From a virus (Duplodnaviria; Caudoviricetes), in IMG/VR virus record IMGVR_UViG_3300037467_003067, positions 160,001-224,000 of that record: DNA of 64,000 nt. One strand, written 5' to 3'. Every line of letters begins with the position of its first letter. The stretch's first letter is position 1. Under the pieces are notes generated by a model. That model saw only the letters and a program-made list of their open reading frames with translations, searched no databases and was not told where the DNA came from. Of the stretch, positions 2,112 through 62,573 are shown one piece after another. The position numbers were made by a program, and so were the translations under genes.

Positions 2112-5100
2112 ATGATTAAGATTGAAGATTATATTATGGAACCGGACACCCTGGAAATCTACGGGGAATGTGCTGTGTATACTCCAACAGAGTTTCAGGA
2201 ATACATGAAATACCTTGAACTACTTGAGGAGATTTACTCAACTGCCGGGCGTCTATTGCCGGGCATCTACAACAAATTCGATGCTTTTTTCGGCTTGTCG
2301 GAAAATGACCAGCCCACGCAAGACGCACCTCAAGATGATCTGAATGCTGACTGGAATCCCCAAGGTACTATCAAGAAGTACCAGATGCAGCCGATCAGCC
2401 GCGAGAACATCCTCTTCAGCCGAAGGCTAATCAAGTCGCTCAACCAGGTTCCATTCGAAGCAATGCCCGGCTTGCTAGGAAGGACCCTGATGAGTAGCGA
2501 CCCGGTGGCACAGCGATATATCGGCGACGGGTTCCAGGGTGCCCTGAGGTATCGCAAGAAAACCGGCAATCAACTGAGCAATTATGCCGTGGAAATGCGA
2601 TTCCTCAAACGAGGAAAACCGAGACCAAATATTATCGACCCAAAAACGATGACGACGATCCCACTGCTTCAGGCAATCGTGGCTCCTAGTCGCGTAGAAG
2701 CGATTAAAAAATCAAATGGTGGCGATGTTGTCATGTATGACAGTAAAACCATTTCCAAAGTCATGCCGACACCTAACCCGCATCCGGGATACCTCTACGA
2801 CGGCAAGGACGACCAAGGCAATACCCTCTTCAATGGCAAGGGCGGCACTCGTCCCGAATTGCAAGGATACTCACAAGGTGTTTTCTTGCCCTATAGAGAC
2901 CTTGCCAGTCAAATTGAAACCCCGGTTGGAGCGCCACGTGGTTATTGGACCGACCCCGAGACAGGCAAAAAGTATCCTTTAAGGAAGCAAGGAACCGTAG
3001 GCACGAGCCTGGAACCACCCGAACCGAATGACCCGGATTCATATCTCGGCAAAGTTCCCGCTGCCCTCGGCTACAAGCCCATGGCTACCGTTGCTGGAAG
3101 CCGCAAACAACACGCTGATGCCGACGAGGAGCCATTGGAGCCGGGAGAAGGCGAACAAGGTCTTTACTACGACAGAAACAAAAGAACCGGAGGCGCTGGG
3201 ACATTTGATAAGGCATTCAGAAGAACCATCCAATATCACGGAGAAACTCCCGGATCTTTTAATCAAAGAACATTCCGATATCTGCTTCACAGGTTAAGAG
3301 GAGGCAGCACAACTACTGGTCTGGTGCCAGACAAGAATCCACGCCCACATATGACTCGCGCCCCCAACGCCGACGAGCAAGGCAACGCACGTAAACGAGC
3401 CAAGAGACAATTGGTCCCCGGCGAAACCTCACGATACAGGACGGAGCCAGCGCATGTGGTCCAGGCATCGCCCGAAAGGACCAGTGCCTTGACTTCGTTC
3501 CTGGCGAAAGACCCGGATTACTATCAGAAGCAAATTGATTACTACAATTCCATCGGACGACAGGACATTGCACAGAAATTCCAGGCTGAATTGCAGAATT
3601 CCCAACAGGTCCCCATGGCAGTCGGTCGGATGCGACAGAACTTCGCTAATCCAGGATCTCAGCCTATCGGGGCTCAGTATGGCGATTTCGGCAAAGGACT
3701 GGAAAAAGTAGGAACCGGAGAATTCTACACCAGTGGTCGCAACAAGGGCAAGGAAATCCTTAAGGCAAAGCGAGAAAAAGGGATCGACAGCAAGGGCAAA
3801 GAGACTAGCTCCCAAGTAAAGCGAACCCACGAGATTCCTATGATCAGGAAGGTAATTTCCAACCTGTTCACTTTGGTTCCTGTTGCCGATGAACAAAACC
3901 CGATCACCATCTCGGCAGCATTGGCTCAAGAAATAAACGCCATCCAAGAAAAGTCCAAAGGAAAAGGAATCAAAAATGTGAAGCTTACCCAAGGTGACAA
4001 TAGCCCTTCCGATCAGGCTATTCGAGCCAATTACGGCAAGCAAAACAAGGATGAGGGGGGAGTAGTCCTCTACCTCGTCGGACAAGCTGCCAGTGGAGAA
4101 GGCGAAAATGCGAGGTATTTTGTTCATCCTAACGACAAGACCTACCGCAAGAAGCGATGTTATTTCGCCAAGCTCGACGAGAATGGTGAGGTCTTGTTCG
4201 CCTATACTAAGACCAAAAAAGATATAGAAGAAAAAGACCAGCCCATCCTTTCACCAGGCGTACTCAACCAACACATGGGCGGCGCGATTGCTGCTGCCTA
4301 TGGTGGCATCAATGCGGCTCCAGCGGGCGAAGAAACTAAAATGCCGCACCAGGACTATGACAAGCATATGACCGCTTTGTATGGTCCACCCGATGAAAAC
4401 GGCAACTACAATACGAACCAACCATTGAACACCAAAACCCCCACCGGCTTGAGTGTTTCTATCTACAACAACCTCGTCAGTGGTGTAGACCATTATCTGG
4501 AAAGCAAGATCGATAAAAAACTCACGCCAGACCTCTATCGTCGGATGAAAGGACGAAGGGATGATATCATACAAGCTGCGTACAAGTTAGCATTGTTGAA
4601 CCTGAATAACGGGCAAATGCTGGACACCAGGGCTGGAGACAAGTCGAACTTCAACCTGAGATATATGCAGCATCAATTCCCCCACCTTTACGCAACCATC
4701 AGGCAACTCGACAATGCCGTAAAGAAGGGGATGGTCCCAGCCAAGATTCTCCCGTCCATGATGACGCTCAAGGAATTCGGACGGTTCATGAAGAATCCCG
4801 ATGTTCAGGAATTCCTCAATGCCAGAGATGAAAATGGCAAGGGCAATATCAATGTTAAAATCAAAACCAGAAACATCATAAGACGAGATGGCAAGGAACG
4901 AGCTTACAGGAAAGCCTGGTCGCCCGAAGATATGCAGTACCAGACCGATGCTTCCGGTCATGTGCTTTCGCCCGATGAAATGCACGATCCGGATGTGATC
5001 CACAGGGGATATACGAAAAGCGCTGTTGGCTCGAAGCAGCTTGAAGACATGGTCAATAACGCCCGACGAATGTATATTCGATGGATGGGCAAGGACATGG

Positions 5101-51698: not shown

Positions 51699-52300
51699 TG
51701 TCTTATCTCCCCACAGTAAAAAACAGAAAAAACAAAGCCGTTGAGCCGGATCGAAACCAGCAAATTGTTGCAAAGTACACCAGGTCCGACTCGACGGCTA
51801 TAAGGTCATATCCTAAAGCACAATTTGTCAGTGTGTACAGGATCACACGCCATGCCCGAGAACGATATCTCCAGAGATTTTCCAACTTATCGAAATACAA
51901 ACACATTGATTCTTGTCCTCAAAGAGATACCTGCAAGCACTGCCATTCCCTTCGCATCGCCCTCAAGCAACTCGCCGATGACCAAAGGTTCGAGGTCGAC
52001 AAGGAAATTGAACGACGGATCAACCAAGCCAAAGAAGAACGCTCTTATATCAATAATACCGAACTGATGCTTCGCCTCTGGGAAGAGTACGGCTACGATT
52101 CAAGATTCCGGTTCCTGAGAGATCAGGATGCCGTGTTCGTCATCGGTCAGAATGGTCCGATCCAGACTGTTATCACGGTATTACCCATGGGGTCTCCGAT
52201 CGGGAAACAAATCTCTGTTCATGTCAAATTCCGCAAGAAAGACAAAGGACGGCTTCCTCAACCAGAACCCGAAGAAGAAACTTACATTGCCGACAGGTGA
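51698..52300 (+). CDS. Hypothetical protein
   Basis: ITRHARERY..R and TVITV resemble BECR/RelE-like fold motifs (weak). Confidence 0.55.
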   Translation: MSYLPTVKNRKNKAVEPDRNQQIVAKYTRSDSTAIRSYPKAQFVSVYRITRHARERYLQRFSNLSKYKHIDSCPQRDTCKHCHSLRIALKQLADDQRFEVDKEIERRINQAKEERSYINNTELMLRLWEEYGYDSRFRFLRDQDAVFVIGQNGPIQTVITVLPMGSPIGKQISVHVKFRKKDKGRLPQPEPEEETYIADR

Positions 52301-52307
52301 CCCAAAG

Positions 52308-53513
52308 ATGCCAAATACTTCTCTTGACGGGATGATTGCACACCTGACCAAGGGAGCGAGGATCGAGACCAACTACAACGAGTTTCGTGACAAGCTCGCC
52401 GAAGGTCGACCATTGGTCGTGAAGTACGGCATCGATCCCACAGGGGTCGATGTCCATCTGGGTCATACCGTGCCCTTGCGTATTCTCCGGAGATTCCAGG
52501 AAGCCGGTCATCAGGCAACGATCATCATCGGTGACTTCACCGCACAGATCGGAGACCCAAGTGGTCGTAATGAGACCAGACCTCCATTATCTCGTCAGCA
52601 GATCAACGAGAACATGAAGGGCTACCTTTCGCAAATCGGCAAGTTCATCGACATGTCCAAGGTCAGGACGTTCTACAACTCCACCTGGTGTCACCGTATG
52701 CGGTTGGTGGATGTCCTCGCCGAATTCGCGCCCATAACCGCACAAAGAATGCTCGACCGCGACGACTTCTCCAAGCGGCTCAAGGAACAACAGCCCGTCT
52801 ACCTCCATGAATTCATCTATCCTGTGATCCAGGGCATCGACTCAAGAGAAATACACGCTGACGTAGAACTCGGCGGCACGGAACAACTCTATACTCTCTT
52901 GATCGCCAGAGATATCCAGCAACGCGCCGGACAACCTCAACAAACCTGCATCACGGTGCCGATCCTCCGGGGACTCGACGGCAAAAGAAGGATGGGCAAG
53001 TCCCTCAAGAACTATGTCGGGATCAATGACAGTCCTGCCGACGTGTTCGGCAAGACGATGAGCATTCCCGATGAATTGCTTCAGGAATGGTACGATCTCC
53101 TCACTGACCAAACATATAATCCCGAAAAGCACCCGAAAGGACAGAAACTCGCCCTTGCCTCCATCCTCGTCACGCAAATCTATGACAAGGAGACGGCGGC
53201 AAAAGCACAAGAAGATTGGGAGACGCAATTTTCCAAGAAGCAAGATCCCAGCGAGATTACCGAAGTCGTAATCCCGCCGCAGGAAATGTCCATCTGTCAT
53301 CTTTTGGTGGCGAGTCAACTTGCTGCCAGTCTCAGTGAAGCAAGACGTGCCATCATCCCCAACCCAAAGACAGATGGAGATGGTTCCAAGAGTAGCGTGA
53401 CACTCGGTCCCGATCGCACGAAGATCCTTGATCCCAAGACAGTGGTTGCGATCGAGGACAATATGATCCTGCGATTGGGCAAAAGGAAGATTGTCCGCAT
53501 TCGAACCAAGTAA
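52308..53513 (+). CDS. tyrS: Tyrosyl-tRNA synthetase
   Basis: GIDPT..HLGH, GDFTA.IGDPSG, ELGGTEQ, RMGKS, C-terminal S4-like domain. Confidence 0.96.
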   Translation: MPNTSLDGMIAHLTKGARIETNYNEFRDKLAEGRPLVVKYGIDPTGVDVHLGHTVPLRILRRFQEAGHQATIIIGDFTAQIGDPSGRNETRPPLSRQQINENMKGYLSQIGKFIDMSKVRTFYNSTWCHRMRLVDVLAEFAPITAQRMLDRDDFSKRLKEQQPVYLHEFIYPVIQGIDSREIHADVELGGTEQLYTLLIARDIQQRAGQPQQTCITVPILRGLDGKRRMGKSLKNYVGINDSPADVFGKTMSIPDELLQEWYDLLTDQTYNPEKHPKGQKLALASILVTQIYDKETAAKAQEDWETQFSKKQDPSEITEVVIPPQEMSICHLLVASQLAASLSEARRAIIPNPKTDGDGSKSSVTLGPDRTKILDPKTVVAIEDNMILRLGKRKIVRIRTK

Positions 53514-55005: not shown

Positions 55006-55077
55006 GGGACTGAGGTGTAATTAGTAGCATGTTAATCTGAAAAGTTAACGGGTCGAGTGCGATTCTCGGCGGTCCCG
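55006..55077 (+). tRNA. tRNA-Phe(GAA)
   Basis: GGGACTG/CGGTCCC acceptor; TTAAT-CTGAAAA-GTTAA anticodon arm. Confidence 0.8.
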
Positions 55078-55113
55078 CTTCTTTGACAATTTGGCAAATC
55101 TTTAAGCATAATT

Positions 55114-55224
55114 CATTGACGATGCCCCTCGCAACCGGGGGTGCCTCACGTTGATTAAGCCGGATAAAAGCTAGGTTAGAAGCTCGCCGGTCCTAGGAGC
55201 GAGTGAAGGCTATATTCGTCAGTG
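55114..55224 (+). ncRNA. Unidentified structured RNA candidate (~110 nt)
   Basis: Closing stem CATTGACGA/TCGTCAGTG with nested hairpins. Confidence 0.4.
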
Positions 55225-55263
55225 AAAAACAATTTAAACAATAACTTAAATTCAAACTAAGCA

Positions 55264-55515
55264 ATGAAAAAAGTAATTCACGTTAATCAACACAAGATTA
55301 AAAGTAACCGTAAAACAGGTCTTAACGAACCGGTCCTTACCGTCAAGACCTACAAGACTAATGACTACGCTCACGAGGTCTACATCGACGGACCCTGTAA
55401 GATCATCTATCGTCCAAATAAGCCGCTCTCGTGCGGTGCCGAAGTCTGGATCGAGGTAGAGAGCGGGGTTGAAGTGGAGATAACTGATTTTCAGGGAGAG
55501 AATAGAGATGGATAA
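55264..55515 (+). CDS. Small phage hypothetical protein
   Basis: IHVNQHKI...PLSCGA.VWIE. Confidence 0.7.
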   Translation: MKKVIHVNQHKIKSNRKTGLNEPVLTVKTYKTNDYAHEVYIDGPCKIIYRPNKPLSCGAEVWIEVESGVEVEITDFQGENRDG

Positions 55516-55705
55516 CAGCAAAAATGAGGAACCAAAAATAAGGTCGTGGACTAAATTTTTGGATGCCATCTTTCCTTGGAACGGCGGTACTTGTCGGATC
55601 TGCCGCCAAAAATTTAAAACAGACGAACAATGGCATCACGTAGATGGATTGTTTGGCTATCAAATATGGAGATGTAATTGTAAAGGAAGATCGATCAATA
55701 GGTAA
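55508..55705 (+). CDS. Small Cys-containing hypothetical protein
   Basis: CRIC...CNC. Confidence 0.5.
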   Translation: MDNSKNEEPKIRSWTKFLDAIFPWNGGTCRICRQKFKTDEQWHHVDGLFGYQIWRCNCKGRSINR

Positions 55706-55717
55706 ACATTATCAAAC

Positions 55718-55794
55718 GGCAGTGTAGGAGAATTGGCATATCCGCTCAGTTCAGACCTGAGTGCTTTTGTGGGTTTCGAATCCCACCACTGCCA
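55718..55794 (+). tRNA. tRNA-Leu(CAG), short variable arm
   Basis: GGCAGTG/CACTGCC; CTCAG-TTCAGAC-CTGAG. Confidence 0.8.
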
Positions 55795-55800
55795 TCATAT

Positions 55801-55882
55801 GTCCACCTGGGGGAATTAGCAGACCCGTGGTACTCAAAATGCCATGCCGAGAGGCGTACCGGTGCGAGTCCGGTGGTGGATA
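55801..55882 (+). tRNA. tRNA-Leu(CAA)
   Basis: GTCCACC/GGTGGAT; TGGTA-CTCAAAA-TGCCA; long variable arm. Confidence 0.85.
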
Positions 55883-55886
55883 CTGC

Positions 55887-55967
55887 CAGGACGTGGCGTA
55901 AAGGCAGCCGCGCTAGTCTTAGGAACTAGTCCCGTAAGGGGTGAGGGTTCAACTCCCTCCGTCCGTA
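55887..55967 (+). tRNA. tRNA-Leu(TAG), imperfect acceptor stem
   Basis: CTAGT-CTTAGGA-ACTAG; GGTTCAACTCC T arm; only 5 acceptor pairs. Confidence 0.7.
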
Positions 55968-55973
55968 CTACAT

Positions 55974-56055
55974 GACCATCTGGGGGAATTAGCAGACCCA
56001 TGGCACTTAAAATGCCATACCGCAAGGTGTCTCAGTGCAAATCTGAGGATGGTTA
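55974..56055 (+). tRNA. tRNA-Leu(TAA)
   Basis: GACCATC/GATGGTT; TGGCA-CTTAAAA-TGCCA. Confidence 0.85.
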
Positions 56056-56062
56056 CTCGAAT

Positions 56063-56143
56063 GCGTCGGCTGGGCATTGACGAGCCCAAGTGGCTGTAAC
56101 CCACTCGCCTCTGGCTGTGGCGGTTTAACTCCGTCCCGACGCA
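56063..56143 (+). tRNA. tRNA-Tyr(GTA)
   Basis: GCGTCGG/CCGACGC; AGTGG-CTGTAAC-CCACT. Confidence 0.85.
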
Positions 56144-56163
56144 CTTTATTCAGGAGAAGACCA

Positions 56164-56346
56164 ATGGCGAAGAAAAAGATGACGATTCCGGAGCAGATCA
56201 AGCACGAGGAAGCGTACGTGGACTTCCTTCGCAAGCGATTGGATTCCGAGAACTACAAATCCAGTGTAGCTCCGGAAGAGTACCAAAAGACCAAAGAGAA
56301 GTATAACAAGGCGAAGTTTCGACTGAAGACCTTGAAGACTAAGTAA
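56164..56346 (+). CDS. Small basic coiled-coil protein
   Basis: MAKKKMTIPEQ...; AGGAG RBS. Confidence 0.65.
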   Translation: MAKKKMTIPEQIKHEEAYVDFLRKRLDSENYKSSVAPEEYQKTKEKYNKAKFRLKTLKTK

Positions 56347-56359
56347 AACAAATCAATCA

Positions 56360-56444
56360 GACCTTGTGCTGGAACAGGTATACAGCGTCGGCTTAGACCC
56401 GACGGTCCCTAGTAGACATGAGGGTTCGACTCCCTCCAAGGTCA
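56360..56444 (+). tRNA. tRNA-Leu(TAG)
   Basis: GACCTTG/CAAGGTC; GTCGG-CTTAGAC-CCGAC. Confidence 0.88.
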
Positions 56445-56450
56445 TTTTAT

Positions 56451-56534
56451 CGTCCCGTGCTGGAATTGGTATACAGCACCGATTGAGGATCGGTGATCCT
56501 TAGTGATATGAGGGTTCGACTCCCTTCGGGACGA
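56451..56534 (+). tRNA. tRNA-Leu(GAG)
   Basis: CGTCCCG/CGGGACG; ACCGA-TTGAGGA-TCGGT. Confidence 0.88.
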
Positions 56535-56590
56535 CTAAATAATTATTGGATAAAAACCATATAAAAGTTAGGATTCAACTATGTTATTGA

Positions 56591-57328
56591 ATGGCAAACT
56601 CAAATGTAGAATATACTAAAGAACTTCTAGAACCATTAGTCAAAACTAGCTATTCAGTAGCCCAAGTATTACGAAAACTTGGTAAAAGATTAGACGGAGG
56701 CGTTCATTCTCATTTATCTAAAACAATTAAAAACTTAGAATTGGATACATCTCATTTTACGGGACAAAGAAGCAACTGCGGTCCGAATCACAAAGGAGGA
56801 CTTCGCAGAAGAACATGGCAAGAAGTATTAGTTTTAAGGGCTAACGATAGAAGAAAAGAAGACACATACTTATTAAGACGCGCATTAATTGAATTTGGTC
56901 GTGAATATGTTTGTAGTAATGAAAAGTGTAAAATAGCAGGAGAGTGGCTAGGACAAGAAATAACCTTAGAAATTAATCATAAAGACTGTGATTGGTCGAA
57001 CAATAAACCAGAGAACTTAGAGTTTTTGTGTCCTAATTGCCATTCTCAATACCACAAATTTCTGACACAGTCCAAACGCAAGCATAATAGACAGATTAAA
57101 ACCAAATCTAATAAGTCTAATCATTGCGTTGATTGTAACAAAGCAATATATAATAAATCTACTCGATGTAAATCATGTCAAGGTAAAACATCTCCCAATA
57201 AAATTAATTGGCCGCCAACTAATGTTTTAATTGAAATGGTCCAACAAAGTAATTACTTAGCTGTGTCAAGACAGCTAGGAGTATCTGATAACGCAATTCG
57301 TAAGAGAATTAAAAATCACGCCGCTTAG
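56591..57328 (+). mobile_element. HNH homing endonuclease inserted in tRNA array
   Basis: LEINHKD..WSNN..ENL..LCPNCH; C-terminal HTH LGVSDNAIRK; AT-rich. Confidence 0.88.
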
Positions 57329-57340
57329 TGTAGCATAAGT

Positions 57341-57427
57341 GACCTTGTGGTGAAATTGGCGAGACACGGCGGGCTTAAACCCCGTTGCCTGTTAAAGGGC
57401 ATCCCAGTTCGAATCTGGGCAAGGTTA
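57341..57427 (+). tRNA. tRNA-Leu(TAA)
   Basis: GACCTTG/CAAGGTT; GCGGG-CTTAAAC-CCCGT. Confidence 0.85.
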
Positions 57428-57433
57428 TCATTG

Positions 57434-57515
57434 GGAGGGGTGGACACAGGCACGTCAGACCGGTTGCTAACCGGCTCGCCGGAAACGGTTGCAGGTTCAA
57501 ATCCTGTCCCCTCCG
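57434..57515 (+). tRNA. tRNA-Ser(GCT)
   Basis: GGAGGGG/CCCCTCC; CCGG-TTGCTAA-CCGG; G73. Confidence 0.82.
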
Positions 57516-57574
57516 CTCAATCAAAAAATCGAGAAATAAAATGAGTATCTTTTGAGTTGACAAATACATAATGC

Positions 57575-60275: not shown

Positions 60276-60339
60276 GAATTGGTTTCCTAAAGAGACTAGG
60301 TGATATTTTATATAGATTGGTATAATTATTTAATATATT

Positions 60340-60421
60340 GGTAGTGATCCGAAGTTGGCGAGGACACCCGCTTGAACCGGGCTGCCCGAAAGGGTTGAGA
60401 GGTCGGCACTCTCCGCTACCG
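60340..60421 (+). tRNA. tRNA-Ser(TGA), atypical T loop
   Basis: GGTAGTG/CGCTACC; CCCG-CTTGAAC-CGGG; long variable arm; T loop lacks TTC. Confidence 0.7.
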
Positions 60422-60445
60422 CTCTTATTTAGAAAGGACAAGATT

Positions 60446-60736
60446 ATGGCGGGCTATATTGCGTGCTATGAACACAGCGACAACGCGACTAAGAACAAGG
60501 CGGCGGCGATGGTCAAGGTGACATGCCAGACCGATTTCGCTGCTAAAACTGAGGAGTTCGTCAGTTTTTGTCAGCGGATTGCCAAGCTGGCGTGTGGGTT
60601 CCAGATCGAGGACACCAAGGCGTTCCTCGAAATCATCGAAAACGATTTCGAGGATCTTGCTGCTGATCTTGATGCTTTAAGAACTGACCTCAAAGAAAAC
60701 ATTGAAATTGCCGCAATCCGGGTCATGAAACTTTGA
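60446..60736 (+). CDS. Truncated elongation factor Ts-like protein
   Basis: GYIACYEH...MVKVTCQTDFAAKTEEF...LKENIEI matches the EF-Ts core (TDFV) subdomain; 96 aa. Confidence 0.75.
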   Translation: MAGYIACYEHSDNATKNKAAAMVKVTCQTDFAAKTEEFVSFCQRIAKLACGFQIEDTKAFLEIIENDFEDLAADLDALRTDLKENIEIAAIRVMKL

Positions 60737-60744
60737 AATTAATC

Positions 60745-60772
60745 TTGTAGCACATATCGATATGTGCTACAA
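60745..60772. repeat. Perfect loop-less 28-bp palindrome
   Basis: TTGTAGCACATATC|GATATGTGCTACAA. Confidence 0.85.
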
Positions 60773-60789
60773 TAATCAAATACAAAATT

Positions 60790-60885
60790 TCAACTCCGGA
60801 AGAAGCTGCTGAGGTATATGATAAAGCAGCACTGGAGAGATGGGGAGATAAAGCAGTGACTAATAAGTCCTTAGGGCTTTTATAA
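60790..60885 (+). pseudogene. AP2 DNA-binding domain remnant
   Basis: STPEEAAEVYDKAALERWGDKAVTN*; no in-frame ATG back to TAG at 60748. Confidence 0.65.
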
Positions 60886-60904
60886 TTTGCTGAATTAAAA
60901 TCAT

Positions 60905-60991
60905 AGTAGGAAGGCGAATGTTGGTTTGTCGCGACTAGTTGGAAGCTAGTTCCAGGTAACACTGGCAGCGGTTCAATTCCGCTTCCTACTG
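60905..60991 (+). tRNA. tRNA-Ser(GGA)
   Basis: AGTAGGA/TCCTACT; ACTAG-TTGGAAG-CTAGT; G73. Confidence 0.82.
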
Positions 60992-60995
60992 CTAA

Positions 60996-61088
60996 ACCCG
61001 ATAGGCGAATCGTTGGATAGTCGCGCCCAATTAACCCTTGGGTCCGTCTGAAATTACGGCGGGGCATGTTCGACTCATGTATCGGGTG
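60996..61088 (+). tRNA. Atypical tRNA: Ser-type body with AAC (Val) anticodon
   Basis: ACCCGAT/ATCGGGT acceptor; CCCAA-TTAACCC-TTGGG; long variable arm; TTCGACT T loop; G73. Confidence 0.65.
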
Positions 61089-61092
61089 TTAT

Positions 61093-61179
61093 GGGGGATA
61101 GGTGGATGTTGGTTTGCCTCACTTATTTCGAAAATAAGACCGTCTAATCGCGGCGCAAGTTCGATTCTTGTGTCCTCCG
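61093..61179 (+). tRNA. tRNA-Ser(CGA)
   Basis: GGGGGAT/GTCCTCC; CTTAT-TTCGAAA-ATAAG; G73. Confidence 0.8.
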
Positions 61180-61218
61180 CTTAAAGATTTGCCCTAGGAC
61201 ATGGAGGTCCTTAAATAA

Positions 61219-61722
61219 ATGATTAGAATTGCCGGACATGAATTCGCCCTCGAACTCGTCAAGCACGAGTTTCTGAGTGCGCTCATCCTCAACGACCCTG
61301 GCGACGTCTATAGAACGGTGCGACAGATACGAAGTATCGCCAGAGGCTCTCTCTATCTGGAGTTCTTCGACTTAAGCGAGGAACGCAAGACTCACCGAGG
61401 TCCCATCGCTGAGGATGTGGTCCATGCGATCGAGTGGTACAAGAAGATTCAGCGTGCGACCTGGAATGATGTCGTTGTGACCTGTACAGCAGGAATTTCC
61501 CGTAGTGCTGCGATGGCGTTTGTGTTAGAATGTGTGGACAAGACGCCGCAGGAAGCATCTCAAGTCTGGAATCCCCGTCTTCACTATCCCAACAAATTGA
61601 TTGTCCGTTTAGGTGCTGAAATTCTCAGCAAGCCGGACATGATCAAGGTCTGTGATGAGTTCTGGGATGAGCGGCTTCGGAGGCGGGCATCGAAGGGGAA
61701 ACCTGCCAAGGTCGATGTTTGA
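61219..61722 (+). CDS. Cys-based phosphatase (PTP/DSP-like)
   Basis: CTAGISRSAA (CX5R), FFD, YPN. Confidence 0.8.
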   Translation: MIRIAGHEFALELVKHEFLSALILNDPGDVYRTVRQIRSIARGSLYLEFFDLSEERKTHRGPIAEDVVHAIEWYKKIQRATWNDVVVTCTAGISRSAAMAFVLECVDKTPQEASQVWNPRLHYPNKLIVRLGAEILSKPDMIKVCDEFWDERLRRRASKGKPAKVDV

Positions 61723-62141: not shown

Positions 62142-62573
62142 ATGAAAATCGTCATCAACGAGAAAGACATCAAGCGGCAGACGTTTCGCGCCGGTGGGAA
62201 GGGCGGGCAGCACCAGAACAAGACCGAGTCAGCGGTCAGGTTGACCCATATCCCCACCGGCATCATCGCCGAGTCGCGGGGCGAGCGGTGCCAGCATAAG
62301 AACAAGGAAATTGCCCTGAAGCTTTTGCTGGGCAAGATCCATCGCTACTACGAGGAGCAGGCGAATCGGAGTCAGCAGGACCAGTATAACTCCAAGGCAG
62401 ATGCGGCGTTCGGACAGCAGGTAAGGTCATACGTGTTACACGGCAAGACCCAGCAGGTGACCGATCACCGGACCGGGCACAAGGAGATGAATCCGGACCA
62501 GGTCTTACGCGGTGAGATCGACGGGTTCATCGAGGCATTTTTGAGGAAACAAATAAATGAAGGACGAGGATAA
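62142..62573 (+). CDS. Truncated peptide chain release factor (GGQ domain + RF2-like C-terminus)
   Basis: RAGGKGGQHQNKTESAVRLTHIPTG, QVRSYVL, DHRT, GEIDGFI; no N-terminal or codon-recognition domain. Confidence 0.9.
   Translation: MKIVINEKDIKRQTFRAGGKGGQHQNKTESAVRLTHIPTGIIAESRGERCQHKNKEIALKLLLGKIHRYYEEQANRSQQDQYNSKADAAFGQQVRSYVLHGKTQQVTDHRTGHKEMNPDQVLRGEIDGFIEAFLRKQINEGRG

Follow-up and report, generated by a model that had tools for sequence, protein, structure and literature searches.

A phage-encoded tRNA gene that joins a serine-type class II body to a valine anticodon

The tRNA trio and its surroundings

The DNA analysed here, referred to as the window, is a stretch of 64,000 nucleotides that corresponds to bases 160001–224000 of a 298,603-bp IMG/VR virus record (IMGVR_UViG_3300037467_003067) with a completeness rating of 59%. 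A TyrRS identical to that of the window is also recorded on a 585-kb contig, which indicates that the source, a soil phage, is a megaphage. The window contains three adjacent tRNA genes in a neighbourhood rich in translation genes, and the middle gene of this trio is referred to below as the candidate. The tRNAs of the window are nearly all class II (Leu, Ser, and Tyr), together with one Phe. The features of the region are as follows.

52128–53513: TyrRS gene
55006–57516: tRNA array containing Phe, Leu, Tyr, and Ser (ARAGORN)
60338–60736: EF-Ts-like ORF, similar to EF-Ts over positions 1–75 of the latter (E = 5e-10)
60865–60879, plus strand: terminator-like hairpin (consensus scan and sequence)
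60881–60886, plus strand: TATAAT hexamer, 19 nt upstream of the tRNA trio (consensus scan)
60905–60991, plus strand: tRNA-Ser(GGA), a member of the A8-G9 scaffold described below (ARAGORN; covariance model, 87 bits)
60992–60995, plus strand: 4-nt spacer (read from the sequence)
60996–61088, plus strand: candidate class II tRNA gene, 93 nt, anticodon AAC (ARAGORN; covariance model; parse)
61089–61092, plus strand: 4-nt spacer (read from the sequence)
61093–61179, plus strand: tRNA-Ser(CGA), a member of the A8-G9 scaffold (ARAGORN; covariance model, 80.2 bits)
61219–61722: ORF weakly similar to dual-specificity phosphatases, downstream of the tRNA trio
62142–62573: RF-1-domain, ArfB-like ORF (E = 5e-30)

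The ARAGORN ends for the two Ser neighbours (60905–60992 and 61093–61180) run one base beyond G73. The 4-nt spacers imply that the trio is made as a single transcript that is cut at each tRNA, and the TATAAT hexamer is a possible promoter of the trio's own. An encoded CCA is absent from all three genes, and an ORF of the PolyA_pol/CCA-adding family is present in the phage record at G000:4730–5176. The phosphatase-like ORF has a homologue that adjoins tRNAs in a related 430-kb phage (G002), which shares 64 ORFs with the present phage and whose Ser pair is without a third gene.

Directly 3′ of the EF-Ts-like ORF lies a hairpin with a 12-bp stem and a 4-nt loop (60745–60772), a near-perfect palindrome that is listed as terminator-like for the minus strand only; it may be an operator or a terminator that acts in both directions. 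Among named cellular proteins, the phage TyrRS is closest to those of Gemmatales/Gemmataceae (about 50% identity), a hint at a planctomycete host, and its relatives in phages from the protein search show 56–60% identity. A minus-strand ORF at 60723–61067 has no family match and was treated as spurious. The 689-aa neighbour was considered as a tRNA enzyme and rejected, with no Pfam, PHROG, or PDB match and with weak Atlas leads to tail-fibre-like proteins. A related-locus search with three neighbouring proteins gave no relatives. A phage-encoded SerRS or ValRS was also rejected, since no match to a SerRS-type or ValRS-type synthetase core was found in the 298.6-kb record (59% complete).

The initial annotation had described the candidate as a Ser-bodied tRNA with a Val anticodon, situated between tRNA-Ser(GGA) and tRNA-Ser(CGA). 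ARAGORN likewise calls a tRNA-Val(aac) at this position on the plus strand, flanked by the two Ser genes. Its parts are as follows.

60996–61002, plus strand: acceptor 5′ strand, ACCCGAU, pairing with 61081–61087 and holding A1:U72 and C2:G71
61003–61025, plus strand: A8 G9, D arm (stem 61005–61008 / 61021–61024), and G26
61026–61042, plus strand: anticodon arm, with a 5-bp stem (CCCAA/UUGGG) and the loop UUAACCC at 61031–61037
61033–61035, plus strand: anticodon AAC, with C37 at 61036 (A34, A35, C36, C37, C38)
61043–61063, plus strand: long variable arm, 21 nt, with a 5-bp stem and a 9-nt loop
61064–61080, plus strand: T arm, stem GCAUG/CAUGU (G49·U65, C50-G64, A51-U63), loop UUCGACU
61081–61088, plus strand: acceptor 3′ strand, AUCGGGU, and discriminator G73, with CCA not encoded

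The parse gives a cloverleaf with a 7-bp acceptor and a 5-bp T stem (7/5), in which 21 of 21 main-stem pairs are standard. It contains all of the parts that had been noted, that is, the D stem GCGA/UCGC as in Ser(GGA), A8 and G9, the long variable arm, and G73. The anticodon AAC in the loop UUAACCC, with a pyrimidine at position 37, is seen both in the sequence and in the ARAGORN call. The length of the variable arm lies within the family range of 16–24 nt. The D loop consists of 12 nt with G18 G19, and differs from that of the family by one inserted C and a U-to-A change.

The unconstrained minimum-energy fold of 60996–61088 is not the cloverleaf (−35.2 versus −29.0 kcal/mol), which counts against the reading that we favour below. 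This fold contains an 11-bp helix joining the 3′ half of the D arm to the T arm, and two pairs of the helix involve the two As of the segment GGAUAG in the candidate's D loop, where the neighbours have U. Two further ideas about the anticodon arm were discarded: hairpin inversion would give a loop without U33, and the anticodon loop has no complementarity to the variable loop.

A phage class II scaffold with A8 and G9

Relatives of the trio were collected by a scan whose query joined the T loop to the shared D arm. They define a scaffold with A8 G9, the D arm AGGCGAAUGUUGGUUnGUCGC, a long variable arm, the T loop UUCRAUU, and a 7/5 cloverleaf, in which A8 replaces the usual U8. The scaffold is present in the window (60905–61180) and at the loci L011, L014–L038, L043, and L044. 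Its matches in the metagenome collection are on 25 contigs, all of the stretches lying within dense tRNA arrays. IMG/VR contained one true match, and 2 of 185,579 species genomes contained the scaffold, both within tRNA arrays. A search of cultured phages with the Ser(GGA) gene gave no D-arm match, blastn of the locus against cultured phages gave no match, and no mention of the D-arm sequence was found in the literature searched. Within the collections compared, the A8-G9 D-arm class II scaffold is phage-restricted, and it is defined in the present analysis.

The 17 distinct members have a mean column identity of 69%, with A8, G9, and nearly all of the D arm and T loop invariant. Their identities comprise Ser anticodons with G73 or U73, Tyr with A73, and one His with G-1:C73, and the anticodon and the discriminator change together in every member except the candidate. 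The His member (L028:466–553, minus strand) combines the A8-G9 D arm with a class II body and a GUG anticodon; its variable arm of 17 nt contains a 5-bp stem, G-1 faces C73, and CCA is encoded. Its occurrence on this D arm indicates that an identity which normally goes with class I can be taken on by the scaffold.

The collected arrays had further unusual contents. On a 1.95-Mb MAG contig, L044:3557–5390 is an all-class II array (Ser x4, Leu x6, and Tyr x2) located between FG-GAP repeat protein genes on this bacterial-size contig, and its Tyr tRNAs have the A8-G9 D arm. L043:3800–6930, on a 277-kb contig binned as a Chloroflexi MAG, has 35 tRNA genes within 8 kb, a phage-like density, and in at least six of them (Val, Met, Ser, Ala, and two Thr) the near-universal U33 is replaced by C33. 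In the megaphage arrays, tRNA-like genes whose anticodon loop has 6 or 8 nt, and which ARAGORN reports as 'tRNA-???' (ga, tg, aagg, or ggaa), recur at L022:2865–2937, at L027:1757–1831, 1948–2020, and 3105–3178, at the equivalent places in L031 and L032, and at G002:399874–399948; the L027, L031, and L032 contigs are 98–99% identical, so that their agreement says little about conservation.

A family covariance model was built from the 17 relatives, with the candidate excluded. The candidate matched this model over its full length with 51.1 bits (E = 6e-13) and zero non-standard pairs, a match far beyond chance. With the same model, the Leu tRNAs of this phage scored at most 37 bits and true Ser members 78–95 bits. 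The generic Rfam tRNA model did not report the candidate, and gave weak scores to the flanking Ser genes (25.3 and 22.5 bits), which had raised the suspicion of an unusual tRNA family. The candidate keeps 23 of the 25 family-invariant columns, including A8, G9, G18 G19, U33, and the T-loop core, and deviates from the scaffold by the inserted C, U20 to A, and U59 to C.

The closest relative of the candidate is the adjacent Ser(CGA), with 60% identity. Between the candidate and each neighbour, 21–23 of the 42 stem bases differ, and 10–11 pairs are changed on both sides with no pair broken. Random substitution at equal density kept all 21 pairs in none of 200,000 trials. A compensated stem divergence of about 50% indicates that the cloverleaf has long been under selection, and argues against a drifting pseudogene. 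The suggestion that this is a decaying gene is weakened by these compensatory changes, and neutral decay appears unlikely. As judged from the alignment, the candidate is a divergent member and an old paralogue of the phage class II (Ser/Tyr-type) scaffold and is paralogous to its two Ser neighbours, and the earlier view of it as a Ser-type body with a Val anticodon is supported.

An orthologue of the candidate was found neither in IMG/VR nor in the metagenome scan nor in G002, and only paralogues of at most 60% identity were recovered. Candidate-specific DNA patterns searched in IMG/VR gave only chance matches for the anticodon arm and none for the T arm.

The initial annotation had also pointed to an 8-bp acceptor with a 4-bp T stem, the 8/4 geometry of allo-tRNAs. 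The candidate by itself can indeed adopt this fold, at −28.3 kcal/mol compared with −29.0 kcal/mol for 7/5, a difference of 0.7 kcal/mol. Variation in the family, on the other hand, speaks against the 8/4 geometry. On the 17-member alignment, the 7/5 structure has 98.6% of its cells paired, and 17 of the 21 pairs change on both sides. The pair 49:65 is formed in all 17 relatives and covaries (GC 9, GU 4, AU 3, CG 1), whereas A8 is invariant and pairing of 8:65 is possible in only 7 of the 17, in each of which position 49 is a purine able to pair with U65. The covariation of 49:65 and the invariance of A8 together indicate that the scaffold family is 7/5 with A8 unpaired, and the A8-U65 option in the three genes of the window reads as a by-product of U65.

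A search with an allo-tRNA-type model did not bear out the proposed kinship either: the tRNA-Sec model RF01852 gave 17.0 bits against a gathering score of 47, with an alignment that begins inside the D loop. One point favours an allo-like shape. The two private D-loop changes (the inserted C and the U-to-A change) give the D arm, in isolation, three extra Watson–Crick pairs closing a GUUG tetraloop. The 4-bp stem and G18 G19 are kept, and family variation, with two covarying pairs, backs the 4-bp D stem.

Anticodon loop, identity elements, and the meaning of GUU

The anticodon loop was compared with those of 247 tRNAs, which are the distinct standard-loop tRNAs from all of the phage arrays compared. 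At position 37, 201 have A, 44 have G, one has U, and one, the candidate, has C, and A34 occurs in the candidate alone. Strict conservation of a purine at position 37 has been described (PMC7812866). A34 and, above all, C37 predict that the candidate should read GUU poorly. The loop is not of the Ser type: each of the 14 Ser members combines an NGA or GCU anticodon with A37. It is one substitution (A37C) away from the Val-type loop UUNACAC of the other phage Val tRNAs, so that C37 may be an error in base calling or a lesion of recent date.

The acceptor stem begins with A1:U72, C2:G71, C3:G70, and C4:G69. The pair 2:71 is G:C in 16 of the 17 relatives, including all of the Ser and Tyr members, the exception being the His member. 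In most bacterial tRNA-Ser, G1-C72 and G2-C71 are conserved, and C2-G71 is reported to count as an antideterminant for the SerRS of E. coli (PMC9976931). In E. coli, Ser-type tRNAs of odd shape and with non-Ser anticodons are charged by SerRS, an enzyme that accepts many shapes and disregards the anticodon (PMC5389517). From the indifference of SerRS to the anticodon, the initial annotation had proposed that the candidate, if charged, could insert Ser at GUU. The long variable arm and G73 agree with such charging, whereas C2:G71, in place of the G2:C71 of all Ser members, speaks against it and may block SerRS altogether.

For valine identity, A35 is a major ValRS determinant, A73 is universally conserved, and C36 is among the transplanted elements, while G3-C70 and U4-A69 matter in E. 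coli tRNAVal (PMC9976931). The candidate has A35 and C36, and also C38 as in four of the seven phage Val loops. It has neither A73 nor a class I body with a short variable region, which the other seven Val tRNAs of the arrays have (A73, 73–77 nt). G73 also blocks LeuRS and TyrRS (PMC9976931). With C2:G71 counting against SerRS and G73 against ValRS, the identity set of the candidate is, by these comparisons, mixed: the variable arm and G73 are of the Ser type, and A35, C36, and C38 of the Val type.

GTT occurs 1224 times in 270 long ORFs of the phage (14.3 per 1000 codons, 22% of Val codons), and the TyrRS by itself has one GTT only. In the 64 ORFs shared with G002, the residues opposite 189 GTT codons are V (0.34), I (0.22), L (0.08), and S (0.05), a distribution indistinguishable from that of GTC codons in the same comparison (V 0.35, I 0.20, S 0.04). 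The phage has a normal tRNA-Val(GAC) with A73. Reassignment of GUU to Ser was rejected on the basis of the codon usage and the 189 aligned codons; GUU is still valine in this phage, and efficient insertion of Ser would therefore harm the phage's own proteins.

Proposed role and comparison with known tRNAs

The candidate is probably neither a normal adaptor nor a decayed gene, but a specialised, poorly decoding tRNA. The reading that we favour, tentatively and as possible rather than likely, is that it is a maintained, co-processed tRNA that is chargeable mainly by SerRS and is a poor decoder. The candidate would most likely be co-transcribed with tRNA-Ser(GGA) and tRNA-Ser(CGA) and excised by RNase P and 3′ trimming, and CCA would be added by a CCA-adding enzyme, of which the phage encodes one family member. 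Any aminoacylation would, judging from the long variable arm and G73, be by SerRS, for which C2:G71 would make it a weaker substrate than both neighbours. On the ribosome, it would be a poor reader of GUU through A34 and, above all, C37. It would thus act as a 'non-proteinogenic' tRNA, mostly outside bulk decoding and with at most a trace of Ser-for-Val, and would be free for another tRNA-shaped job, such as an aminoacyl donor or a body double that binds tRNA-directed host factors. As regards the former, FemAB, Acetyltransf_6, and LPG_synthase_C had no match in the 298.6-kb record (59% complete), and a Fem or MprF-type aminoacyl-tRNA transferase as partner was rejected.

An active, allo-tRNA-like missense tRNA, charged by SerRS and inserting Ser at GUU at a level that matters, would have the same long variable arm, G73, non-Ser anticodon, and cloverleaf held by compensatory change. 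Such a tRNA would perhaps also read GUC and GUA if A34 becomes inosine, and its uses would perhaps be damage to host proteins or diversification of phage proteins. It would, however, poison the phage itself, which uses GUU at Val/Ile/Leu positions, and would compete with the phage tRNA-Val(GAC). Weak decoding is predicted from C37 and A34, each unique among the 247 tRNAs, and the acceptor has the reported SerRS antideterminant instead of the Ser-member pair. Three of the defining features of allo-tRNAs (the 8/4 or 9/3 split of the 12-bp acceptor/T branch, a tRNA-Sec-type D arm with a long stem and a tetraloop, and a match to the tRNA-Sec model) are without clear support. We regard this alternative as unlikely.

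A class II tRNA that was disabled recently, its loop hit lately, and that is still folded and functionless, or an assembly or base-call error at C37, would account for a singleton whose orthologue is absent from IMG/VR, the metagenome scan, and G002, and on which generic tRNA models fail. The loop violates two near-universal rules, and one inserted base and two substitutions fall in otherwise invariant loop columns. The zero broken pairs at about 50% stem divergence from the paralogues and the retained invariant columns oppose this explanation. Moreover, at least four changes in five adjacent bases separate the loop from any Ser loop, while the 42 stem bases show no disrupting change, and C2:G71, C3:G70, and C4:G69 are all compensated. 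Compensated acceptor pairs that depart from the family indicate that selection has long acted on the candidate in a capacity different from that of a family-type Ser tRNA. We regard recent disablement or error as unlikely too.

Recruitment of the Ser/Tyr scaffold as a tRNA-Val that is charged by ValRS via A35 and C36 and supplements the decoding of GUU, which makes up 22% of Val codons, is quite improbable. The loop, with A35, C36, and C38, departs from UUNACAC at position 37 only. Transplanted A35 and C36 are among the changes that confer valine acceptance, A35 being a major determinant (PMC9976931). The L028 tRNA-His provides a precedent for recruitment to a class I-type identity, and the Ser-type G2:C71 has been lost from the acceptor stem. 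Conversely, C37 replaces A37, C3:G70 and C4:G69 are unlike the G3-C70 and U4-A69 of E. coli tRNAVal, and G73 stands against A73 in all seven other phage-array Val tRNAs; the discriminator is unchanged, whereas the His and Tyr members of the scaffold changed theirs with their identity.

As an uncharged decoy or regulator of tRNA shape, produced along with the Ser tRNAs, the candidate would bind a hypothetical host factor directed at class II tRNAs (a nuclease, toxin, or sensor) and never enter translation, a reading that we regard as decidedly improbable. In its favour, the window tRNAs are nearly all class II, a role against tRNA-cleaving defences has been suggested for phage tRNAs, and the anticodon GA at which VapC-type nucleases cleave Ser tRNAs is lacking in the candidate (PMC10264068); the mixed identity set is poor for SerRS and ValRS and blocked for LeuRS and TyrRS. 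Against it, a decoy for an anticodon nuclease should bear the target loop, and the candidate departs in its acceptor stem and D loop from the scaffold to be imitated.

The broader proposition, that a giant phage keeps a seryl- or otherwise charged class II tRNA with a Val anticodon as a dosed Val-to-Ser mistranslator, a non-ribosomal aminoacyl donor, or a decoy, has a low probability in our estimate. To our knowledge, natural tRNAs with a disagreement between body and anticodon and with a tested function are few, namely the allo-tRNAs and the yeast CUG decoders. If the candidate is a dedicated off-code tRNA, it would be the first in a virus with a defined role, on a phage-only scaffold that is re-used for Tyr and His. 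A phage-encoded mismatch tRNA would show that viruses can carry translation-altering or non-translational tRNAs, which go beyond codon supplements or nuclease-resistant replacements. If the candidate is inert, caution is needed before decoding capacity is read from the 'tRNA-Val' calls that ARAGORN makes in megaphage arrays. The A8-G9 scaffold set provides material for why phages keep their own Ser/Tyr body and how readily identity shifts.

The nearest known systems are the allo-tRNAs and the phage (8/4) tRNA-Ser (Mukai et al., 2017, PMC5389517), which, like the candidate, join a long variable arm and G73 to an anticodon that is not of the Ser type. The allo-tRNAs have G73 or U73, and the candidate has G73 with a 21-nt variable arm that contains a 5-bp stem. 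Both the tRNAs of that study and the candidate are located in tRNA clusters of uncultured phages. Allo-like options of the candidate include the A8-U65 pair, a possible sixth anticodon-stem pair (G26·U44), and a D arm that can extend to a tetraloop hairpin. Unlike allo-tRNAs, the candidate keeps a canonical 4-bp D stem with G18 G19, its family covaries as 7/5, and the tRNA-Sec model that found the allo-tRNAs gives it 17 bits. C37 and A34 are not among the reported features of allo-tRNAs (PMC5389517). The sole reported Val allo-tRNA pairs with GUC, whereas the anticodon of the candidate pairs with GUU.

The yeast tRNA-Ser(CAG) that reads CUG also has a Ser-type body with the anticodon of a hydrophobic amino acid. 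In these yeasts, CUG is reassigned or ambiguous genome-wide (PMC6041473), whereas GUU in the phage behaves as valine.

In Staphylococcus, the np-tRNAGly, with C37 and with the weak pair A51-U63 in its T stem, is charged yet kept out of ribosomal decoding, and serves cell-wall synthesis outside translation (PMC6103715); it is the closest functional precedent found. The candidate likewise has C37 and A51-U63. A51-U63 is also present in 4 of the 17 ordinary scaffold members, and both A51-U63 and G49·U65 occur in ordinary Ser members, so that these pairs are not special. The np-tRNAGly belongs to class I, its anticodon is cognate for Gly, and its Fem partners are known, whereas in the candidate the anticodon mismatches the body.

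Compared with the A8-G9 scaffold itself, the candidate shares the D arm, the T loop, the variable arm, and the overall cloverleaf. Among about 27 distinct scaffold sequences, it is the sole one with a mismatch between anticodon and discriminator, and C2:G71, C37, A34, the inserted D-loop base, and C59 are private to it.
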